DNA of 64,000 nt. It comes from an uncultured Candidatus Marinamargulisbacteria bacterium (GTDB lineage: Bacteria; Margulisbacteria; Riflemargulisbacteria; GWF2-35-9; DYQY01). The notes beneath the pieces are model-generated. The model saw nothing but the letters and a program-made list of their open reading frames with translations, was not told the DNA's origin and ran no database searches. The DNA lies in the NCBI GenBank assembly GCA_964429235.1, contig CAYSAQ010000001.1:266045-330044 (forward strand), read 5' to 3'. Every line of letters starts with the position of its first letter. The stretch's first letter is position 1. The translations under genes were made by a program, and so were the position numbers. Shown here piece by piece: positions 3,920 through 14,594 of the stretch.

Positions 3920-4627
3920 TTAATTTGATAATACCCTAAACTCTAAGTCTTGTTTAATCTTTTTCCAATCAGGAAGCTTTTTTGAAAGCAAGTCATAGAA
4001 CTTTCTATCATGTTTAGAATGAGAAACATGGCATAATTCGTGAATCATTACATAATCAATTTGCTGCCTCGTTGCTTTAATAAGGTTTGGATTTAAAATA
4101 ATAGTATTGCTTCGTAAGTAACTGCCCCAACGTTTATTTAGCTTCCGAATCTTTAATAAAGGCAAATGGTCATATTCAAATAACTTAAAACATATTTCCA
4201 ACCGTTCTTGAAACTTTTGCTCTGTTTTTTTCCTAAACCATTTAGTTAAAAGATTTTTAGTTCTTATACTGTCTTTGGAGTACTTAGAATGAACATTAAT
4301 CCTGCCCATTGAAAGAGAAACATATTCTTTATAATCAGCTTGACCAACATTCAATTTGTACTGTCTGCCTAAATACAAAAAGCTCTCACCGCTAACATAT
4401 TCCTTCTCTAACTGTGACGAAAACTGTAAAAAATATCTACGTTGTTTAAGAATCCAAATAGACTTTCGTTTTAAAAAATCATATATTTTCTGCTCATTAT
4501 CAGTACTTGGTACTTTCACAATAATATTACAATTAGGAAAAACAGTAGCAGTAATTGTCTTACGGTTCTCTTCTAGTAATGAGTAATCAAAAGAAATGTT
4601 CTCATATACAAAAGTCTTGTTAATCAT
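3920..4627 (-). CDS. YgjP/DUF45-like zinc hydrolase (annotated in databases as M48-family metallopeptidase), linked to hsdR
   Basis: 235 aa with C-terminal YVMIHELCHVSHSKHDRKFYDLL (HExxH). Its ATG overlaps the hsdR stop by 4 nt (4624-4627). Confidence 0.75.
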   Translation of the reverse strand: MINKTFVYENISFDYSLLEENRKTITATVFPNCNIIVKVPSTDNEQKIYDFLKRKSIWILKQRRYFLQFSSQLEKEYVSGESFLYLGRQYKLNVGQADYKEYVSLSMGRINVHSKYSKDSIRTKNLLTKWFRKKTEQKFQERLEICFKLFEYDHLPLLKIRKLNKRWGSYLRSNTIILNPNLIKATRQQIDYVMIHELCHVSHSKHDRKFYDLLSKKLPDWKKIKQDLEFRVLSN

Positions 4628-7600
4628 TTATTCTTTATTTCCAAATTCCAAGCATCAGAAACAATACGGTCAATATCTTCAACTTTAAAAGGAATATTAT
4701 ATTCATCCCTAACAACATCAAATAAATAATCCTCTAAATCATTCCTTACTTCTCTTTCTACTTCTATGTTGCTATACCAATCAACGATCTTCTTATCATT
4801 TATCATTTTATGAAGCTCTGTAGTTATAACAGACAAAGAGTCGTCAGAGACATTGTATGTTTCCATATACTTCTTCATACTTCTAAACAATGGATGTAAT
4901 TCTTTCTTGTCTTTTATATCAGAAGGGATGTCACTATCCTCATAGTCTTTAACTTTCTGCTGATAGTTCTTAGCCTGACCTAGCAAAGCCAATAAGTCTT
5001 CTGTTTTAGCCACTCTTAACTGTGCAATAAGCTCTTTAACTTTATCTCCAAACTTTTTATAAAAATCAGGATCTTTATCCCAGTTCTCCTTAATTGTTTT
5101 CTCTGTTTGCGCTGCAATAGCTTCTGCCTTTGATTTATCCGACAATCCATTCTGATCATCCTCAATAAACTGATTGAATTCTAGTGCATCTGATAAATTA
5201 ATTGGCTTAGAAAGAATTGATACATCCTCAGACACTACATATTTATTCAAAATTCTCCTTATCTGGTCTTCGTATTTTGAAAAATCTATTATTTCTGCAT
5301 GCATTGCTTTAACTATTTTTTTAATCTCAATAAAACGTTTCAAATCAAGCACATAACGTTTCATTTTTGCATCATCAAACTTTTCAAAAAAATCTGGCAA
5401 TCCTCTACATACAGCGAAGTTCTTAATAAATGAATTAACTAGTTCATAATAACGTTCACGTTTCTCTATATCACCAGACACTTTATTTATATATTCTTGT
5501 GAATCTTTCCTGTTTTTAACATCATTAAACATTGAATGAAGATGCTGATAAACACTTTCTAAATCTGAAATCTTTTCATCAGTATCTATTAATGCTCTAT
5601 TAATATCCTCTATATCATAATTAGAAAATAATTCTAGTGCATACCTAAGATTTTTAGCATTCTTAGAGTAATCTATAATAATCCCATTAGTCTTAGACTC
5701 TTTAGCATTGTCACCATTAAAAAGCCTATTTACCCTTGCTATAGCTTGTAAAAGATTATGCTCCTTTAATTCCTTAGCAAGATATAGGAAGGTATTACGT
5801 GGAGCATCAAATCCTGTTAATAATTTATCTACTACAATAATAATCTTGCAACCGTCTGGATTGTCTTTAAAATCTTTAATAATAGATTTTTCTCTAATCT
5901 CTAAGGAATACCCGTGCTTATGCTTTTCTTTATCCAAAAATTCTGCAACAAGCTTCTTATGCTCTGGCAACTTATCGTCTGCAACATCATCTAAACTATT
6001 GTCAGATATAATCACATTGGAGTCATGAAAGCCAGCTAGCTTAAATGCTTCTTGAAATAAAACTGCTGCATATTTGGAGGGAGCAACAACCTGGGCCTTA
6101 AGGCCTGTATCTTTAAACTCTTCATAATGGTCCAAAATATCAGAAGCGATAAACTCTATTCGTTGAGAATTCTGTTCAATAATCTTTGAACTTGTAAACT
6201 TCTTCTCCAAATCTTTTCGTTGTTCTTCTGTTAAATCTTTTGTTGCTCTATCATAAAATTTATCGAGGATGCTTTGTTGCACTGATTGCTCTACAAATCT
6301 TGCTTGATATATTAATGGCAATACAGCGCCATCTTCTTCTGCCTCTGAAATTGTATAAGAATCTATTAAACCCCTAAACTTACTAACACTCTCCTTATCC
6401 TTCTTCATTAATGGTGTACCTGTAAATGCTATCTGACATGAATTAGGCAATGTCCTATTCAGCTCTATATTTGCTAAACCACCTTGGGTTCTATGAGCTT
6501 CATCTATTAAAACAAATACATTTGGATCAGTATCAGTAAAATCTCTGAACTCTTTTGATGACTCAAACTTATGAACCAGAGTTGTAATAACTCTCAAATC
6601 CTTTTCTTTGATTAATTTCAATAGCTCTTTACCATTATTTGCTTGAATAACACCTTTTTTCACATTACATGCTTCAAAAGTATCTCTGATTTGTTTATCA
6701 AGGTCTTTTCTATCTGTAACAACAACAATACGAGGTAACTCGATAGAATCCTGCTCAATAATAGCTTTAACTAGCATAACCATTGTAAGCGATTTCCCAG
6801 AACCCTGAGTATGCCATACTAGTCCACCATTTCGTCTGCCATTTTCTTTTATATCAGAAACTCTTTTAATGATTTTCTTTATAGCAAAATACTGTTGATA
6901 ACGAGCTATCTTCTTAACATTTGCATCATAGATAACAAAACCATGAACAAGCTCTAAAAGTCGCTCTGGTCGCAACAAACTATAAATACCATTATCCTGT
7001 TCTGAGATTGCTCTATCACCTACATAAGCGTCTCTTCTTAATAAATCATGATTTACTATAGTTATATCTTCTTGTTTTGAGTGGACATCAATACTCTCAT
7101 ACACAACACCATCATACTCATCTTTATCAGCACCTTTTTCTTTCCATACAGCCCAAAATTCAAATGGAGTATTCATAGTTGCATACTTAATCTCTCGAAC
7201 ATTGCAGGCAACTAACACCTGTGGGAATAAAAAGAACTTTGGTGTTTGTTCTTTTCCTTGGTTACGAATCATCTGAGTAACAGCATCAGTTACTGGCACT
7301 GAAGACTTCTTGTTCTCTATAACAGCAAAGGGGATCCCGTTAACAAACAGAACGATATCAGGTCTACGGTTATGAACCTCATCCAATTCATACTCAGCAC
7401 AAACATGGAACTTGTTATTATTAGGTGTTTCAAAATCTATAAACCTCAACTGAGGATGCACATTCTTACCGTTAATTATCTCTGACACGCCAACACCAGA
7501 TATTATCTTCGAAAAAATGTCTTCTGAGGCCTTAACTACCCCGTCAGACATATTAATATTTTCTAACTCGAATATTTGCTCTCTTATGCTTTTATCTGAT

Positions 7601-7806
7601 ACTTCTAAAGAATTAATCTTACGTACTGCTTCAAATGCGATATCTTGGAATATATATTTTGATTTGCTTTCCCTAATTCGATTTACTTCTGCTCTAGGAA
7701 TGTATTCATATCCTAAATTAATTAATTGCAATATTGCAGGTATTTGAGAATTTGAAGCCTCATCAAAATCAGGCAAATCGTAGTCATTTTCAAAATATTC
7801 AGACAT
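4624..7806 (-). CDS. hsdR: Type I restriction endonuclease subunit R
   Basis: 1060 aa with SF2 helicase motifs HTQGSGKSLTM (Walker A), LIDEAHRTQ (DEAH) and LLTGFDAP. It sits in a locus with hsdM and hsdS. Confidence 0.93.
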   Translation of the reverse strand: MSEYFENDYDLPDFDEASNSQIPAILQLINLGYEYIPRAEVNRIRESKSKYIFQDIAFEAVRKINSLEVSDKSIREQIFELENINMSDGVVKASEDIFSKIISGVGVSEIINGKNVHPQLRFIDFETPNNNKFHVCAEYELDEVHNRRPDIVLFVNGIPFAVIENKKSSVPVTDAVTQMIRNQGKEQTPKFFLFPQVLVACNVREIKYATMNTPFEFWAVWKEKGADKDEYDGVVYESIDVHSKQEDITIVNHDLLRRDAYVGDRAISEQDNGIYSLLRPERLLELVHGFVIYDANVKKIARYQQYFAIKKIIKRVSDIKENGRRNGGLVWHTQGSGKSLTMVMLVKAIIEQDSIELPRIVVVTDRKDLDKQIRDTFEACNVKKGVIQANNGKELLKLIKEKDLRVITTLVHKFESSKEFRDFTDTDPNVFVLIDEAHRTQGGLANIELNRTLPNSCQIAFTGTPLMKKDKESVSKFRGLIDSYTISEAEEDGAVLPLIYQARFVEQSVQQSILDKFYDRATKDLTEEQRKDLEKKFTSSKIIEQNSQRIEFIASDILDHYEEFKDTGLKAQVVAPSKYAAVLFQEAFKLAGFHDSNVIISDNSLDDVADDKLPEHKKLVAEFLDKEKHKHGYSLEIREKSIIKDFKDNPDGCKIIIVVDKLLTGFDAPRNTFLYLAKELKEHNLLQAIARVNRLFNGDNAKESKTNGIIIDYSKNAKNLRYALELFSNYDIEDINRALIDTDEKISDLESVYQHLHSMFNDVKNRKDSQEYINKVSGDIEKRERYYELVNSFIKNFAVCRGLPDFFEKFDDAKMKRYVLDLKRFIEIKKIVKAMHAEIIDFSKYEDQIRRILNKYVVSEDVSILSKPINLSDALEFNQFIEDDQNGLSDKSKAEAIAAQTEKTIKENWDKDPDFYKKFGDKVKELIAQLRVAKTEDLLALLGQAKNYQQKVKDYEDSDIPSDIKDKKELHPLFRSMKKYMETYNVSDDSLSVITTELHKMINDKKIVDWYSNIEVEREVRNDLEDYLFDVVRDEYNIPFKVEDIDRIVSDAWNLEIKNK

Positions 7807-7810
7807 TGTT

Positions 7811-8656
7811 TTATTCCTTTAATCCTTTAATTTTACTTGTAGCAATTTTCTTTTCTTGAGATTTAACTCGTCTTTCTAACTTCTTTATATCTTCTTCTGG
7901 TAGTAGTTTTTCAGGGATTATACCTCTTTTTATCAAAAGATCTCTTACGTCATGATTGTTTTGAATATGCTCATTTGTTATTTCATGTTCACCATATAGA
8001 TCATCTTTTTTTACATTAAAATTTGTAATTTCTGTAGCAAGGTTTTTTGCAGTTATCGTTACTGTTGGTAAGAAGTCAGCTAGTGGTCTACCTTTAGGAA
8101 TATCCAGCTTATTTTTCATTGCTTGCGTATTCTTTCCACCAAAAAGAATGGAATCACCTTTTGACCTGATTCTGCCAAAACCTTTTTCATCTACACCACG
8201 CTCATAAATATTCTTTGATAACTCTGTTTCAGATGTTGTAAGTTTTTTTCTTGCATCAAGTCTTTCATTTAACTTTAATCGTTCTTCTATGATTTCCTGC
8301 TTTCTTGTTTGAATTGCAAAATAACTTTGGGCAAAAGCGATTACAGGTTTTGCCGAGTCTCCATTCATAGCAATTAAATAACACGCATAACGGGTAAACA
8401 TAACATCTTTTATCTCTCTTTTTGCTCCTGATCCTAAATCTACCATTTTGTTGACCTCAACAAAATGGTCTAATGGGTCCTGCTTACTATTAACACAAGC
8501 CTCAATAGCCTTATCTATAACTTTTATAAAGTTTCTCCACTCCGCATACTCAAGCAGCTCTTGTATATCTCTAGCAAACCAAAACTCAACTCCATTGTCT
8601 TCAAACATATAATCATTAAATGATTTATACATTCTCGCTATTTTCATTTTCTCCAT
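7811..8656 (-). CDS. dinD: DNA damage-inducible protein D (DinD)-like protein
   Basis: 281 aa. By eye it resembles my recollection of E. coli DinD over most of its length (FARDIQELLEYAEWRNF, FTRYACYLIAMNGDSAKPVIAFAQSYFAIQTRKQE). Only 4 nt separate it from the hsdR start. Confidence 0.7.
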   Translation of the reverse strand: MEKMKIARMYKSFNDYMFEDNGVEFWFARDIQELLEYAEWRNFIKVIDKAIEACVNSKQDPLDHFVEVNKMVDLGSGAKREIKDVMFTRYACYLIAMNGDSAKPVIAFAQSYFAIQTRKQEIIEERLKLNERLDARKKLTTSETELSKNIYERGVDEKGFGRIRSKGDSILFGGKNTQAMKNKLDIPKGRPLADFLPTVTITAKNLATEITNFNVKKDDLYGEHEITNEHIQNNHDVRDLLIKRGIIPEKLLPEEDIKKLERRVKSQEKKIATSKIKGLKE

Positions 8657-8678: not shown

Positions 8679-9827
8679 TTAATTATCTGCGTTTCTAAAC
8701 TCTTGCATTCTAATCTCACCAGTTACTAGTTTGTTTAATAAAAATTTCTTTTGTTTTTGTGTTTTTTTTAATTTTTGTTCGTATAGGTCTATTTCTTCAT
8801 CTGCATCTGTGAGAACTTGAGCGATGGCTTTTTGCTCCATTAAACAAGGTATCTTAATTTTCATATCAGCTATCATTTCCATACGAACTGAATCTACAGA
8901 ACCTTTAGCACTCATAGAAAAAACCCTTTTAGGAAATTTACTTTTAAAAATAAAGAAAAACCATTTACCACATACATCAACATCAAAACTATGAATATTA
9001 TATACTCTTTGATGATAATCAAACTTACCATTTATGTAATGGAAAATTTTACCGACACCAACACCATCTCCAGAAGTTATTACTGCCTCTCCGTCAAAGG
9101 AATATGAATTAATTCTTTCAATTGTCTGAGACCTTACAAAAAATGGATATAAACCATCATCAATTTTATTTTGAGTATCTTTAGCGCCAGTACAAATAGA
9201 AGAAAATTCTTTTATTCTTTTTTCTTCCCACTCTCCACTAAACCCCTTCAACCTAGTCTTACCAGTTAGCAACTGTTGCATTAGTCCTTTTTTTCGATCT
9301 TTCAATAAATCTATTTTTTTAGTTAATAAATCGATGCCTTCATCGAAGTTGGTGAGGACTTGGGCAATGGCTTTTTGTTCAGGTAATGGGGGCATACAAA
9401 ATTTAAGTTTTTTAATATCTGAACTGTTAACAGCTGTAAATGTTGAACCTTGTTCATATTTCTTCCATCTTAATTCATATCGCAATAAATACTGATATAT
9501 ATAACTCTGGTTACTTTTTGTTGCTCTAATTGCACAAACCCCTCTACCAATACATGCATTATGTATCGATAATGCGATATCCCCAACTGGTGCTCGAACA
9601 CTCATTAATATATCATTGGGATTACATGTTTTAGTAATTTCTGTAGTCCATTGTCGAGGTGCAGACAATCGATTATTCATATCAGTGTTTCCTTGAATTA
9701 ATGGCGTTCCGTTACCCTCTGTATTATATGACGATGATAATGGTGATTGCCCCATAATTATTAAGCATACATCATTTAATAATACGTCTTTCCAACCTTT
9801 AGGGATTTGGTTGTTAGGTTTTGTCAT
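8679..9827 (-). CDS. hsdS: Type I restriction-modification specificity subunit S (two target-recognition domains)
   Basis: 382 aa with two variable halves. Each half is followed by a conserved helix repeat: LPEQKAIAQVLTNFDEGIDLL...LLTGKTRL and LMEQKAIAQVLTDADEEIDLY...LVTGEIRM. Confidence 0.9.
   Translation of the reverse strand: MTKPNNQIPKGWKDVLLNDVCLIIMGQSPLSSSYNTEGNGTPLIQGNTDMNNRLSAPRQWTTEITKTCNPNDILMSVRAPVGDIALSIHNACIGRGVCAIRATKSNQSYIYQYLLRYELRWKKYEQGSTFTAVNSSDIKKLKFCMPPLPEQKAIAQVLTNFDEGIDLLTKKIDLLKDRKKGLMQQLLTGKTRLKGFSGEWEEKRIKEFSSICTGAKDTQNKIDDGLYPFFVRSQTIERINSYSFDGEAVITSGDGVGVGKIFHYINGKFDYHQRVYNIHSFDVDVCGKWFFFIFKSKFPKRVFSMSAKGSVDSVRMEMIADMKIKIPCLMEQKAIAQVLTDADEEIDLYEQKLKKTQKQKKFLLNKLVTGEIRMQEFRNADN
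8809..8837. repeat. hsdS conserved-region direct repeat, copy 1
   Basis: gtgagaacttgagcgatggctttttgctc matches 9352..9380 at 25 of 29 nt. It encodes the (E)QKAIAQVL helix after TRD2. Confidence 0.7.
9352..9380. repeat. hsdS conserved-region direct repeat, copy 2
   Basis: gtgaggacttgggcaatggctttttgttc matches 8809..8837 at 25 of 29 nt. It encodes the EQKAIAQVL helix after TRD1. Confidence 0.7.
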
Positions 9828-10677
9828 TAGGTGGTGTCTCCTTAATGTTTCGATTATTTTTTATTCTTTTATATTCTTGATAAATAGTTTGTTTTATTAT
9901 TATTTCAAAATCAAATCCTTTTACATTATATGAATCAATAGCTTCTATCGTTAAATCAAAAATTTCTCCTGAACTTATAAATAAATTGCGAACAGTACGA
10001 GTCATAAAATATGATAATTCTTTATATTCATCTTTTTGAACTGCAGATATTTCTTTGTTATGCCTAGTTTCTTTTACGCTTTCATTTATTCCCAGTGCAT
10101 ATTCCTTAATAATTATAAAAGCTTGTACGAATTCCCCCCACTTAATAAATAAATTTTTTTGTTTAGAATACTTTGATTTACAATAATCATTTAATAAAAC
10201 AATATGCTCTGGCATTAGTTCTTTAATTTCTAAAATCGCTAAGCCCAAAGGTCTATCCTGGTTTATTCTTTCATCATCAACTTGTTTTAATCGATATATA
10301 ATTGATAGATTATAATATGCAATACTGTAAGCTTCTTGTAGTTTATTAAATTTCATCTTTTTCTTTTGTTGTTCCTTAAACCATGTTTCAAGAAGGAAAA
10401 CAATAAGACCTACTATTAGTCCTGTTAGTATACCTGGAGCATAATCTTTCCAGAAAGATACTTTGGAGTCAATAATAATAGGATATGCATGATTTCCTTG
10501 TTGCAATGTGATTGTTTCTTTTTTTGTATATGCAACTAGTTCATTAAGTGTTGAGGAATGAACAGTTAATGCTACGTTAACTGTAGGGTTATTTAAAGAA
10601 ACATATATTTGATTATTAATAGTGGCAATATTAGTTGTTGGCATTAGGTTGATTCCTTTAAAGGGATTAGCCCCCAT
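9814..10677 (-). CDS. hypothetical single-pass membrane protein, no recognisable family
   Basis: 287-aa ORF with one strongly hydrophobic segment, APGILTGLIVGLIVFLLETWF, near residue 80-100. An alternative ATG at 10644 shares a base with the TIR stop (TAATG). The 3' end overlaps the hsdS ATG by 14 nt. Confidence 0.6.
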   Translation of the reverse strand: MGANPFKGINLMPTTNIATINNQIYVSLNNPTVNVALTVHSSTLNELVAYTKKETITLQQGNHAYPIIIDSKVSFWKDYAPGILTGLIVGLIVFLLETWFKEQQKKKMKFNKLQEAYSIAYYNLSIIYRLKQVDDERINQDRPLGLAILEIKELMPEHIVLLNDYCKSKYSKQKNLFIKWGEFVQAFIIIKEYALGINESVKETRHNKEISAVQKDEYKELSYFMTRTVRNLFISSGEIFDLTIEAIDSYNVKGFDFEIIIKQTIYQEYKRIKNNRNIKETPPNDKT

Positions 10678-11438
10678 TGACCTCGTTGTTTTTCATGCAT
10701 TACTCCTATGAATTTAATATCAATATCTTTTTTCTTGGTTATTTCTGCTACAAAAGGGAATCCAGGAACTGTAGCAGCGCCTATAGACATTGTTTGTCCA
10801 TTAAATATTTTGCCATTGTTCAATTTTATTCCTTCATTAAAACCACCCATAAACATAACCTGACTAATACATTTAAACTTTAATTCACCTTTAGTATTAT
10901 TTACTAATAATAAATAGTTAGAAATCGGCTCCATATAATGAATCGCCTTACATTCTATAATTAATTTATTATCTAGTTTTTTCACTTCAGCTATTAAGTT
11001 ATGAAATTCAGCTGGTTGCCGATATGTGTTTTCTCCAGAAATAACATCAATAAGTTGTCTAAGAGTGACTTCTAGTCCATCTTGAAATAAATTTATCCAT
11101 AATGTCTGTAATAATACTGGTGGCATTAAGCAATCATCTAATTTTACAGGAATAAATTTAGTTTCTCCTTTTGTAGCTTTTAATATTGCATTTTGCCATT
11201 CAAGTTCAACAAGTTTACTTTGCAGACTATTTTTTGATACAAAAAATATAAAGAATTTACATTTATCAAGTCCTTCATTCATTTTATCGATGACGCCATC
11301 ACCTGGTTGAATTGACCATGAGTCATAGAAAACTTTATCTTGTCCAAACGTATCTTTTAAACGAACAGCTAATTGTTCGATAATAGGTTTATCTTTGTGG
11401 TTATGTGAAAGAAAGATCACTTCAAAAAATCCTCCCAA
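10644..11438 (-). CDS. TIR-domain protein with unassigned ~130-aa C-terminal domain
   Basis: N-terminus VIFLSHNHKDKPIIEQL...KFFIFFVSKNSLQSKLVELEWQNAI fits the bacterial TIR pattern. The ORF-track start at 11438 is TTG. A GTG at 11420, with GGGAGGA upstream, overlaps the Abi stop as GTGA. Confidence 0.75.
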   Translation of the reverse strand: MGGFFEVIFLSHNHKDKPIIEQLAVRLKDTFGQDKVFYDSWSIQPGDGVIDKMNEGLDKCKFFIFFVSKNSLQSKLVELEWQNAILKATKGETKFIPVKLDDCLMPPVLLQTLWINLFQDGLEVTLRQLIDVISGENTYRQPAEFHNLIAEVKKLDNKLIIECKAIHYMEPISNYLLLVNNTKGELKFKCISQVMFMGGFNEGIKLNNGKIFNGQTMSIGAATVPGFPFVAEITKKKDIDIKFIGVMHEKQRGQWGLIPLKEST

Positions 11439-12342: not shown

Positions 12343-12386
12343 AAAAAAACCCGTCGAATTACGCTTACATGTAGAGGCGCGACGGG
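12343..12386 (-). terminator. Rho-independent terminator-like hairpin between hsdM and the Abi gene
   Basis: On the minus strand: CCCGUCG (12386-12380), a 23-nt loop with possible extra GCG/CGC pairing, CGACGGG (12356-12350), then UUUUUUUAUUUU. It ends about 12 nt before the Abi ORF. Confidence 0.6.
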
Positions 12387-12460: not shown

Positions 12461-13960
12461 CTATCCCAATATCTCTTCTAAATGCTTCTTCATCTTTTTT
12501 TCAGCAACTACAAGCTGTTTATCAATTTCAACAAGCTCTTTTTGAACTTTTGTAATATCTATCTCTTCTTCTTCCTCAAAAGTATCCACAAAACGAGTTA
12601 TATTTAAATTATAGTCGTTTTCTTCTATTTCTTTGTAATTAACAACCCTAGCGAATTTCTCTACATCTTCTCGTTTTTCATAAGTATCAAGAATCTTCTT
12701 AATATTTTTTGGTTCAAGCTTATTCTGAGCTTTTTCTGATTTAAACTCTTTTGATGCTTCAATAAAGAATATATCTTTCTTGTTTTCATTAGCACCACCA
12801 ACTTCTCGAGACTTATCTATAATCAATATAGCAACAGGTATACCTGTAGTTTGAAAAAGACCTGCTGGCAAACCAATAACAGTATCAATAATATTTTCTT
12901 CTAAAAGCTGTTTTCTTATCTTTCCTTCTGCGCCACCTCTAAACAAAACACCATGAGGAACAATCACAACAACTTTTCCTTCTTTTGCTTTTGCTGTCTC
13001 TATCATATGACTGATAAAGGCATAATCACCTTTATCTTTTGGCGCTATGCCTCTGTGAAATCTATTATATGGATCATTTTCAGCATTTTCAGCACCCCAT
13101 TTTTTTAAACTAAATGGTGGATTTGCCACTACTAAGTCAAACTTCATTAATCTATCGTCTTCTATTAGTAATGGGTGGTTTAATGTGTCACCCCACTCTA
13201 ACCTTGCCGAATCCTTACCGTGCAGAAACATATTCATTCTTGCTAAATTATAAGTAGTTCCTATCTTTTCTTGACCATATAGTGCATAGTTATTTGAACC
13301 AACTTCATCACCTGCTAATAGTAAGAGACCACCCGACCCCATAGCTGGATCACAAATACGAGAACCCTCTTTAGGTTTTGCTAATTTTGCAACAAGTTCA
13401 GCAACTTCGTGTACTGTAAAAAACTCACCCGCCTTTTTCCCTGCATCAGCACCGAACCGCTCAATCATAAACATATATGCACGACCTATAATATCTTCTT
13501 CTGCCTCACTAAGGTCTATTTTGGCAAAATCACCAATCAAATCACGCAACATTTTATTTCTCTGAGTAGTTTTACCTAGGACTGACTCAGAATTAAAATT
13601 AACTGAATCAAACAATCCTTTTAATCGCTCATTCTTATCTTCTATCTTATGCAAAGCTTTATTAATGATTTCGCCAATATTATCGGCTGACTGTTGCCTG
13701 TATATATCATAAAAACTTGCTCCTTTTGGCAATACAAACCTAAAATTCTTTAACTTCATCGAGATTCTTTCTTCATCACTACCATATCTAGCTTCAAGCT
13801 TTTCTACTTCAACTTTATGAAGGTCACTCATGTATTTATAGAACAAAAAAGTCAACGCATAATCTTTAAAAACTCCACCATCCACAGTTCCCCTAGATGA
13901 ATTTGCAGCATCCCATAAAGTACCGTTCAATACATCTTGTGTATATTTTTTAGTATTCAT
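12461..13960 (-). CDS. hsdM: Type I restriction-modification N6-adenine DNA methyltransferase subunit M
   Basis: 499 aa with the SAM motif DPAMGSGGLLL and the catalytic motif VVANPPFS. An HsdM N-terminal domain is present. Confidence 0.93.
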   Translation of the reverse strand: MNTKKYTQDVLNGTLWDAANSSRGTVDGGVFKDYALTFLFYKYMSDLHKVEVEKLEARYGSDEERISMKLKNFRFVLPKGASFYDIYRQQSADNIGEIINKALHKIEDKNERLKGLFDSVNFNSESVLGKTTQRNKMLRDLIGDFAKIDLSEAEEDIIGRAYMFMIERFGADAGKKAGEFFTVHEVAELVAKLAKPKEGSRICDPAMGSGGLLLLAGDEVGSNNYALYGQEKIGTTYNLARMNMFLHGKDSARLEWGDTLNHPLLIEDDRLMKFDLVVANPPFSLKKWGAENAENDPYNRFHRGIAPKDKGDYAFISHMIETAKAKEGKVVVIVPHGVLFRGGAEGKIRKQLLEENIIDTVIGLPAGLFQTTGIPVAILIIDKSREVGGANENKKDIFFIEASKEFKSEKAQNKLEPKNIKKILDTYEKREDVEKFARVVNYKEIEENDYNLNITRFVDTFEEEEEIDITKVQKELVEIDKQLVVAEKKMKKHLEEILG

Positions 13961-14538
13961 TACTTAGCTCCTTTTCTAATAGTTATATCAATATATTTAT
14001 TAATAATTTGCTGTTCCGTAGCCATCTTCTTTTTAGTCAAAATAAAATAATCCTTAAAGTCATTAAACTTTTCAACAACATCATATTGCTCTTTAAGGGT
14101 AAGTGATGGAATCGTAACATTGGAAATATTAGACTTATTTATAAACGGAATAGTTGTTGTTTCTAGCAAATTCAAAATCTGTTTTTGACCGTCTTTTGAA
14201 TTAAGATATAAACTTACATACTCAGGGTCAAACTGCTGAGAACTAACTCTAATAACAAAAACACCAGAAGTGCATAAATATTGAGCTGAATCCTTATTAC
14301 AAAATATTGAAGAAGTAAATCTTCCCCTATTTGTAATTAGAACATCTTTTCTTTTTAGCATACTTTTCCCACCAGTAGATAATGAGACTTTAATCAAGCC
14401 ATTGTAATCAATACTTGTATCAGTTTTAATATCCCTAGGCTGTATTACAAATGTATTACTATCAACAGAATTCTCGAGTTTCTCCCTAAATGAATGTCCT
14501 AAAAAAATATCAGCTATATCACATAATTTATTTATCAT
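13960..14538 (-). CDS. hsdS: half-size Type I specificity subunit (single target-recognition domain)
   Basis: 192 aa with an HsdS-like start (KLCDIADIFLGHSF), one TRD and one conserved helix (IPSLTLKEQYDVVEKFNDF...). Its stop shares a base with the hsdM ATG (TAATG at 13958-13962). Confidence 0.75.
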   Translation of the reverse strand: MINKLCDIADIFLGHSFREKLENSVDSNTFVIQPRDIKTDTSIDYNGLIKVSLSTGGKSMLKRKDVLITNRGRFTSSIFCNKDSAQYLCTSGVFVIRVSSQQFDPEYVSLYLNSKDGQKQILNLLETTTIPFINKSNISNVTIPSLTLKEQYDVVEKFNDFKDYFILTKKKMATEQQIINKYIDITIRKGAK

Positions 14539-14544
14539 GGCTAA

Positions 14545-14572
14545 ATTATAACAGAACAGTAGATAGTGTCAA
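14545..14572 (-). promoter_or_regulatory. Consensus sigma-70-type promoter for the half-hsdS/hsdM unit, predicted leaderless
   Basis: Minus strand reads TTGACA (14572-14567), a 16-nt spacer, TATAAT (14550-14545), then ttagcc and the ATG at 14538. There is no Shine-Dalgarno sequence. Confidence 0.55.
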
Positions 14573-14594
14573 GTACAGTATTGAGATACTGTAC
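14573..14594. promoter_or_regulatory. Perfect 9-bp inverted repeat abutting the -35 box (candidate operator)
   Basis: gtacagtat-tgag-atactgtac lies directly upstream of the TTGACA element in the minus sense. Confidence 0.35.

Follow-up and report, generated by a model that had tools for sequence, protein, structure and literature searches.

The 64-kb window analyzed here, that is, the whole stretch of 64,000 nucleotides from an uncultured Candidatus Marinamargulisbacteria bacterium, carries on its minus strand a Type I restriction-modification (R-M) island, the first gene of which encodes a 192-residue relative of the specificity subunit HsdS (hereafter designated half-S). Comparison of related sequences shows half-S to be conserved at the head of Type I R-M islands that form a widespread family. 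Half-S is a real, intact gene under selection and no truncation, and a palindrome recurs beside its promoter. Our leading interpretation, to which we give slightly less than an even chance, is that half-S may be an autoregulatory DNA-binding protein acting on this own-promoter palindrome, either by itself or jointly with HsdM, in the manner of AhdI. In the usual description, a Type I system has three genes, and restriction is controlled post-translationally; here, a conserved extra gene heads the operon. The features on which the argument turns are the following (window positions).

14538..13960, minus strand: half-S, 192 residues, ATG start, first cistron; one target recognition domain (TRD) and one long helix
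13960..12461, minus strand: hsdM, 499 residues, HsdM_N and N6_Mtase domains; its start shares one base with the half-S stop
9827..8679, minus strand: full-length hsdS, 382 residues, two TRDs, two Methylase_S stretches
14572..14545, minus strand: sigma-70-type promoter TTGACA-16-(TGt)TATAAT upstream of half-S
14594..14573, no strand assigned: perfect palindrome GTACAGTAT-CTCA-ATACTGTAC (9+4+9) touching the -35 box; candidate operator

Half-S as the first gene of Type I islands

Related loci were collected through HsdM, which was used as the search bait because sampling via half-S itself was to be avoided. Five HsdM proteins were aligned and one genome per species was scanned, yielding 80 loci, most of them metagenomic, whose HsdM is 50–70% identical to that of the window. 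The loci were annotated with locally built hidden Markov models (HMMs), those for R, S, YgjP, and Bro being made from only 4–5 sequences each, and start codons, open reading frames (ORFs), and HMM labels were assigned by simple scripts. Half-S adjoins hsdM directly upstream in 67 of the 73 loci having at least 700 nt upstream of hsdM. In these 67 loci its length is tightly distributed (median, 193 residues; interquartile range (IQR), 189–197), and in 50 of them it overlaps hsdM or ends within 15 nt of it. A full-length S is also present in every one of the 51 loci with at least 9 kb downstream (51/51), so that half-S is never the sole S there; among the same 51 loci, hsdR was found in 45 and a YgjP-like gene in 41 within the fetched flank. 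Moreover, five contexts reached through independent half-S proteins all showed the same order, namely half-S, hsdM, optional or variable cargo, full hsdS, optional or variable cargo, hsdR, and a YgjP/M48-like gene, with the cargo ranging over Abi_2, TIR, AAA_15/21, ThsB-TIR plus ThsA-Macro, Shedu SduA, NYN, DUF559, and Bro-N. The loci come from Bacteroidia, Elusimicrobia, Saccharibacteria, Peribacteria, Alpha-, Beta-, and Gammaproteobacteria, Fibrobacter, Planctomycetes, and Nitrospirales. Cultured strains among the carriers are Cognatishimia activa CECT 5113, Phaeovulum vinaykumarii DSM 18714, Pseudooceanicola lipolyticus 157, Thiomonas bhubaneswarensis DSM 18181, Methylovulum psychrotolerans Sph1, and Halomonas sp. 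707D7. No description of the half-S-hsdM-...-hsdS-...-hsdR-M48 architecture, nor of the promoter palindrome, was found in the searchable literature.

These results changed the picture drawn in an earlier note, made from the window sequence without database searches: the arrangement is no peculiarity of one locus, but the conserved layout of a large Type I family. The note had set half-S and hsdM apart from the downstream genes as a unit of their own. Since hsdM leads directly into hsdS, without cargo, in 14 of the relatives, the apparent separation is better explained as the product of cargo inserted between hsdM and hsdS.

The half-S product has a single Pfam Methylase_S match (PF01420; 25.2 bits against a cut-off of 22) and matches PADLOC Specificity_I models down to 2e-16, each spanning one TRD. 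Its AlphaFold2 (AF2) model has a mean predicted local distance difference test score (pLDDT) of 96.1 and consists of a globular domain (residues 1–145) and one 44-residue helix (residues 148–191). The TRD fold of canonical HsdS is thus recognizable, whereas the two TRDs alternating with two conserved helical regions are not: half-S has one of each. Its ORF translation includes IPSLTLKEQYDVVEKF. In a Foldseek search of the model, the best match in the PDB was Esub1 (E 1.8e-14 to 1.1e-12; template modeling (TM) score 0.74–0.81 over the full length), followed by Type I and IIB S subunits (1YF2, 5YBB, and 2Y7C); by sequence, the similarity to Esub1 is marginal (phmmer E 0.35–0.39). Judging from the model, half-S most likely forms an antiparallel homodimer with two identical DNA-reading heads, although we infer the dimerization itself. 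The basic observations of the earlier note were borne out by these analyses: Pfam, PADLOC, AF2, and Foldseek agree on one TRD plus one helix in the 192-residue ORF, coupling to hsdM is evident from the one-base stop/start overlap TAATG at 13960, and a separate two-TRD hsdS lies at 8679..9827. Its suggestion of a half-S homodimer on a symmetric bipartite site is compatible with the fold, the closest solved structure being the homodimeric Esub1.

An exhaustive phmmer search with half-S returned 2622 relatives at E ≤ 1e-3 (287 at E ≤ 1e-10). Among the best 150 of the 2622, 148 are 164–256 residues long and only two are full-length S proteins. The alignment of 53 sequences has full-length coverage with nearly invariant residues, and a profile search again recovered proteins of about 190 residues, the named ones being mostly from candidate-phyla bacteria. 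Residues kept in at least 80% of 70 sequences include R18, Q33, R71, G72, R97, N113, Q118, and Q151; the conservation of the polar or basic TRD residues R18, Q33, R71, R97, N113, and Q118 suggests a retained DNA-reading surface. The ratio of nonsynonymous to synonymous substitution rates (dN/dS) by the method of Nei and Gojobori (NG86) is 0.08–0.32, indicating purifying selection.

Half-S has half the usual length of an hsdS, with a full hsdS close by on its strand, as would be expected of a decaying hsdS remnant or a silent donor cassette for phase variation. The earlier note had named a truncated pseudogene as the finding that would overturn its proposal, and this was checked against the relatives: half-S is intact. 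A remnant or phase-variation cassette is contradicted by the conserved length in the 67 loci, by the dN/dS well below 1, by the gene's own promoter, and by the lack of any recombinase among the genes annotated in this and the related islands (half-S was not compared with the full hsdS in a repeat search). The confident AF2 model and a half-S helix unrelated to the helices of the full S point the same way, leaving this explanation a negligible probability.

Some loci depart from the common layout. In two (L040 and L061), a contig end cuts the locus and the C-terminal helix of half-S is still visible. In L074 (about 100–405), the half-S coding region is deleted, leaving a 5-codon ORF before hsdM. 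Two Planctomycetes loci have a divergent gene for an XRE-type helix-turn-helix (HTH) protein in the half-S slot (L084, 8640–9110, and L087, 1523–1945, both minus strand), and no recognizable gene was found in that slot in L034, L081, and L090.

Other loci have a further small gene between half-S and hsdM. An ORF of about 101 residues with a GIY-YIG-like signature (SGVYxILGR ... VVDIGES ... PPCG) is conserved in proteobacterial and Latescibacterota loci (L043, L046, L047, L049, L055, L065, and L071). In five loci of Beta- and Gammaproteobacteria (L051, L059, L067, L072, and L075), the same place is taken by a conserved ORF of 80–107 residues with the motif ...GGWDNKKAG..R..SHHDTK.EAI..AR.MSQREGSELKI...DGKI.QSDSHG.DP.NIPG, which we take to resemble DUF2188.

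A palindrome at the half-S promoter

The earlier note had credited the half-S/hsdM unit with a strong promoter of its own, and the element TTGACA-16-TGtTATAAT indeed scores 12/12, being the sole perfect site in 11.5 kb. Its -10 box ends 6 nt before the half-S ATG and no Shine-Dalgarno sequence is present, so that the half-S mRNA is probably leaderless, as far as can be told from the sequence. A TTGAC placed at -34 to -36 from the start codon, the layout of a leaderless transcript, was found in 17 of 69 loci. Leaderless C-gene transcripts have been reported for some Type II systems.

Directly upstream lies the window palindrome; the 64 kb contain no other perfect ACAGTA-N6-TACTGT. When the 110 nt upstream of half-S were lined up in about 70 loci, a recurring element became apparent. 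Its words were counted in the 150-nt upstream regions of half-S from 69 loci: CTGTA/TACAG occurred 65 times (11 expected), CAGTA/TACTG 65 times (12 expected), and ACAGTA 27 times (2.2 expected), as compared with 33 occurrences of the -35 hexamer TTGACA (3.5 expected). The fold-enrichment was higher for ACAGTA than for TTGACA (9.9x versus 8.3x). The family-wide element is a palindrome of about 21 bp, TRCAGTAAY-N3-RTTACTGYA. An iterative half-site matrix converged on the consensus ~T[A/G]CAGTAA[C/T], with at least two matches in 41% of the upstream regions versus 1.4% of control windows; because this position weight matrix was trained on the same regions as were scored, the comparison is partly circular, and the k-mer counts are the cleaner statistic. 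The half-sites converge with a spacer of 2–4 nt (mode, 3), the palindrome ends 0–10 bp upstream of the -35 box, and in many loci another copy is placed between the -10 box and the start codon. The motif is mostly missing from the loci without half-S; L074, which has lost the coding region, keeps the promoter and the flanking repeats (ATTACGACA ... TTGACA ... GTCGTAATC).

Perfect CAGTA-N6-8-TACTG palindromes were found in loci whose half-S proteins share only 16–30% identity. Conservation of the palindrome at such low protein identity points to a conserved regulatory target, as far as sequences can indicate, and not to a diversifying defense specificity.

Other explanations of the element were considered. 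The consensus LexA box is CTGT-N8-ACAG. The present element reads ACAG...CTGT instead, and it spans phyla with differing LexA boxes, so that a host LexA box was rejected. A terminator of the upstream gene is excluded in the window, where that gene is divergent. The Bro-N/DinD protein encoded in the island is an unlikely binder of the palindrome, as the Bro HMM was positive in only about a dozen of the 80 loci.

Regulator, second specificity subunit, or accessory protein

Half-S and the full-length S of the same islands have evolved in different manners. The TRD of half-S has never been exchanged for an unrelated TRD, and the lineage is one coherent family that is almost absent from full-length S proteins, judging from the best 150 of the 2622 phmmer relatives; the half-S HMM gives a median of 139 bits on half-S proteins versus 50 bits on full S. 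The full S, in contrast, shuffles its TRDs. For example, the C-terminal TRD of the window protein (residues 200–377) corresponds to the N-terminal TRD of the full S of a related island, L001 (75% identity), whereas the other TRDs of the two proteins (8679–9827 in the window; 13935–15227 in L001) are unrelated, despite 85% identity between the HsdM proteins. The helices of the full S have a motif, presumably the HsdM-binding determinant, that is nearly invariant across phyla, KRGLMQxLLTG, or QKRGLMQKLLTG(E/Q)WR, also given as ...KRGLMQKLLTG...; in the window protein it appears as KKGLMQQLLTG and KKFLLNKLVTG (motif versions KKGLMQQLLTGKTRL and KKFLLNKLVTGEIRM). No such motif is present in the half-S helix, which is variable even among close relatives and is on average less conserved than the half-S TRD. 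From these comparisons, half-S is not a plain half of its own system's S and is a separate conserved lineage.

We favor half-S as the binder of the palindrome because it is the only universal island protein able to read it as a symmetric dimer. A half-S homodimer would recognize the ~21-bp palindrome beside its own -35 box, and the second copy in many relatives, and would thereby control its own operon, a part that C proteins or RptR play in other R-M systems. The dimer might act alone as a repressor or activator; alternatively, half-S and two HsdM subunits might assemble into an M2S'2 enzyme and, like M.AhdI, bind or methylate the promoter from which they are expressed. The HTH gene in the half-S slot of L084 and L087, the small repressor RptR in the equivalent slot of another island (PMC12255303), and the scarcity of the motif where half-S is missing also speak for a regulator. 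The full-length S, with its conserved helix motif and shuffling TRDs, would supply the actual defense specificity. We infer both the binding of the palindrome by half-S and the regulatory outcome. A more specific form of the proposal, which we hold as doubtful, is that a TRD-type protein has been recruited as a dedicated transcriptional controller of Type I islands, perhaps relieved by the YgjP/M48-like protease; the link between the YgjP-like protein and the first-gene regulator is speculation.

Several observations weigh against autoregulation by half-S. It is the fastest-changing core gene, with 57–62% identity where HsdM has 94–95% and HsdR 91–94%, and in several pairs its synonymous sites are saturated while the dS of hsdM is only 0.43–0.87. 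Nucleotide identity steps from 50–68% to 90–97% exactly at the half-S/hsdM junction, which looks like allele or module exchange and, on these alignments, is the best argument for a specificity role; such a fast, exchange-like pattern is typical of a diversifying specificity determinant and not of a regulator. The half-sites vary between clades, e.g., TTACGAC in Betaproteobacteria, and about a third of the loci have no clear site at the threshold used, besides the circularity of the half-site matrix. The link between half-S and the palindrome is an argument by elimination from comparative evidence, and a stoichiometric partner of HsdM would explain the tight translational coupling equally well.

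Some of these points also favor a less likely alternative, in which a half-S homodimer with two HsdM (and possibly HsdR) would modify a symmetric bipartite motif throughout the genome by methylation, and might restrict it too, with the full S directing the same M and R to an asymmetric motif. Half-S homodimers, both engineered and natural, are known to act in this way, as in EcoR124I(Δ50)/NT, EcoDXXI, and NgoAV (PMC3874165; PMC2877798; PMC3320862). The overlap of half-S with hsdM in the window, repeated as overlap or close spacing (≤15 nt) in 50 of the 67 relatives, would suit such an enzyme, and the fast evolution, the signs of allele exchange, and the identity step at the half-S/M junction are as expected of specificity genes. 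The geometry of CAGTA-N6-8-TACTG is that of a Type I site, and one recognition site could simply occupy the promoter, as in AhdI. Nevertheless, no TRD swaps have occurred in half-S while the neighboring full S shuffles its TRDs, the helix motif kept by the full S across phyla is missing from half-S, and half-S is never the sole S. Half-sites conserved at 16–30% protein identity are the opposite of a diversifying specificity, and a fully specified palindrome of 10–12 bp would be too rare for genome defense, there being one copy in the 64 kb, at the promoter. Moreover, Esub1, the closest solved structure, showed no convincing binding to its host HsdM (PMC11754733). The proposal of the earlier note that half-S marks a second motif throughout the genome via HsdM is therefore unsupported, given the missing helix motif, the separate TRD lineage, and the constant company of a full S.

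Half-S might also be an accessory that does not target DNA. It might help HsdM to assemble or might titrate it, for instance so that restriction sets in late in a newly entered host, or it might be a decoy for, or a sensor of, phage anti-restriction proteins; the palindrome would then have some other binder. The coupling to hsdM would suit such a role, the fast evolution of half-S could reflect an arms race, and the phage protein paratox binds the half-S-like Esub1 (PMC11754733). The islands, however, encode no other universal DNA-binding protein to explain the palindrome, and the conserved polar and basic TRD residues suggest that a DNA-reading surface has been retained; we consider an accessory role improbable.

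Occurrence of half-S and the palindrome from candidate phyla to Proteobacteria, Bacteroidota, Planctomycetes, and Fibrobacter suggests a shared, undescribed layer of either control or a second enzyme, in islands that also carry changing defense cargo (Abi, TIR, Thoeris-like, Shedu, and AAA ATPases). The present analysis puts forward a specific DNA element and a specific protein as a candidate pair. If half-S is the autoregulator that we favor, a TRD-type controller would play the part in Type I systems that C proteins play in Type II systems, as an unrecognized control layer, and a function would be provided for orphan Esub1-like half-S proteins.

Island context and comparison with known systems

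The nine genes of the window island all lie on the minus strand, in the order half-S, hsdM, Abi_2/AbiD, TIR, 287-residue ORF, hsdS, Bro-N/DinD-like, hsdR, and YgjP/M48-like. In addition to those listed above, the features are as follows.

12386..12349, minus strand: hairpin and U-run between hsdM and the Abi_2 gene; Rfam abiF RNA motif (RF03085) below its gathering score
12331..11417, minus strand: Abi_2/AbiD-like abortive-infection protein, 304 residues, cargo
11438..10644, minus strand: TIR-domain protein, 264 residues, cargo
10677..9814, minus strand: 287-residue cargo protein with no family match above threshold; homologue in L001
8656..7811, minus strand: Bro-N/DinD-like protein (PADLOC PDC-S13), 281 residues, between hsdS and hsdR
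7806..4624, minus strand: hsdR, 1060 residues
4627..3920, minus strand: YgjP/M48-like metallohydrolase, 235 residues, overlapping the hsdR stop codon; last gene of the island

The hairpin after hsdM had been described in the earlier note as terminator-like. A hairpin followed by a U-run is present (fold z-score, -3.8), but it matches the abiF RNA motif, which goes with the cargo gene, at 27.2 bits against the gathering score of 37. The hairpin at the same position in L001 (12150–12187, minus strand) scores 35.5 bits, also under the gathering score, and both sit where the abiF motif belongs, upstream of an Abi_2 gene. Because the U-run comes next, the abiF-like hairpin may also terminate transcription.

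The genes for the TIR and 287-residue proteins are an overlapping pair embedded between hsdM and hsdS (9814–11438, minus strand). The 287-residue protein has a weak, sub-threshold holin-like match at residues 80–107; its homologue in L001 is 29% identical, and that island has no TIR gene. The Bro-N/DinD-like protein (7811–8656) matches the NCBIfam DNA damage-inducible protein D family at 3e-107, and about a dozen related islands encode homologues, placed either after hsdM or ahead of hsdR; the YgjP/M48-like gene encodes a WLM/SprT-like metallohydrolase. The window island is neighbored by DUF1015 and MgtE genes. In L001, a tRNA gene (9310–9392; 60.5 bits; anticodon loop GUA) lies about 600 bp upstream of half-S, which fits island insertion beside a tRNA; the genomic surroundings of the window copy are different.

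Separate single-TRD S genes are already known from Type I 1/2 enzymes, NgoAV, and Esub1. In M.AhdI, which is an M2S2 enzyme, the S subunit has a single TRD, and the operon is under the control of methylation at its promoter (PMC3874165, PMC2878638, PMC12707154). The likeness to this "Type I 1/2" system lies in the separate single-TRD S beside a gamma-class M gene and in the symmetric bipartite target to be expected. The AhdI recognition site occurs in its own promoter; the conserved palindromic bipartite element at the half-S promoter may be such a site. AhdI, on the other hand, is accompanied by a Type II nuclease and a C protein, without a full S or HsdR, whereas the present islands have complete M, full S, and R, and half-S is a putative partner of HsdM. 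In the EcoR124I HsdS(Δ50)/NT and EcoDXXI truncations and in NgoAV, one TRD plus a helix can dimerize and support methylation and restriction at a palindromic bipartite site (PMC3874165; PMC2877798; PMC3320862). Those proteins are truncations of the system's own S that keep the conserved helix; half-S is a separate lineage in which the motif is missing, and a full S is always alongside.

In crystals, Esub1 from Streptococcus pyogenes (PDB 8VSQ/8VSR) is a homodimer built of a TRD-like head and a dimerization helix; its authors found no convincing HsdM binding and judged the architecture to be characteristic of a transcription factor or repressor (PMC11754733). The head-plus-helix folds of Esub1 and half-S are superposable (TM score 0.74–0.81). 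Esub1 is encoded far from Type I genes, whereas half-S always heads a Type I operon. The closest parallel in gene order is an island of enteropathogenic Escherichia coli (EPEC), RptR-hsdM-hsdS-darTG-hsdR-M48, in which the 79-residue repressor RptR comes first and an M48 peptidase last (Zhang et al.; PMC12255303), and RptR has repeated or palindromic sites in its own promoter (PMC12255303). Half-S shares with RptR the first slot upstream of hsdM, the same island order ending in an M48-like gene, and sites at its own promoter. The two differ in that RptR is a 79-residue helical repressor, and C proteins are HTH proteins, whereas half-S is a TRD-fold protein with a much higher rate of evolution.

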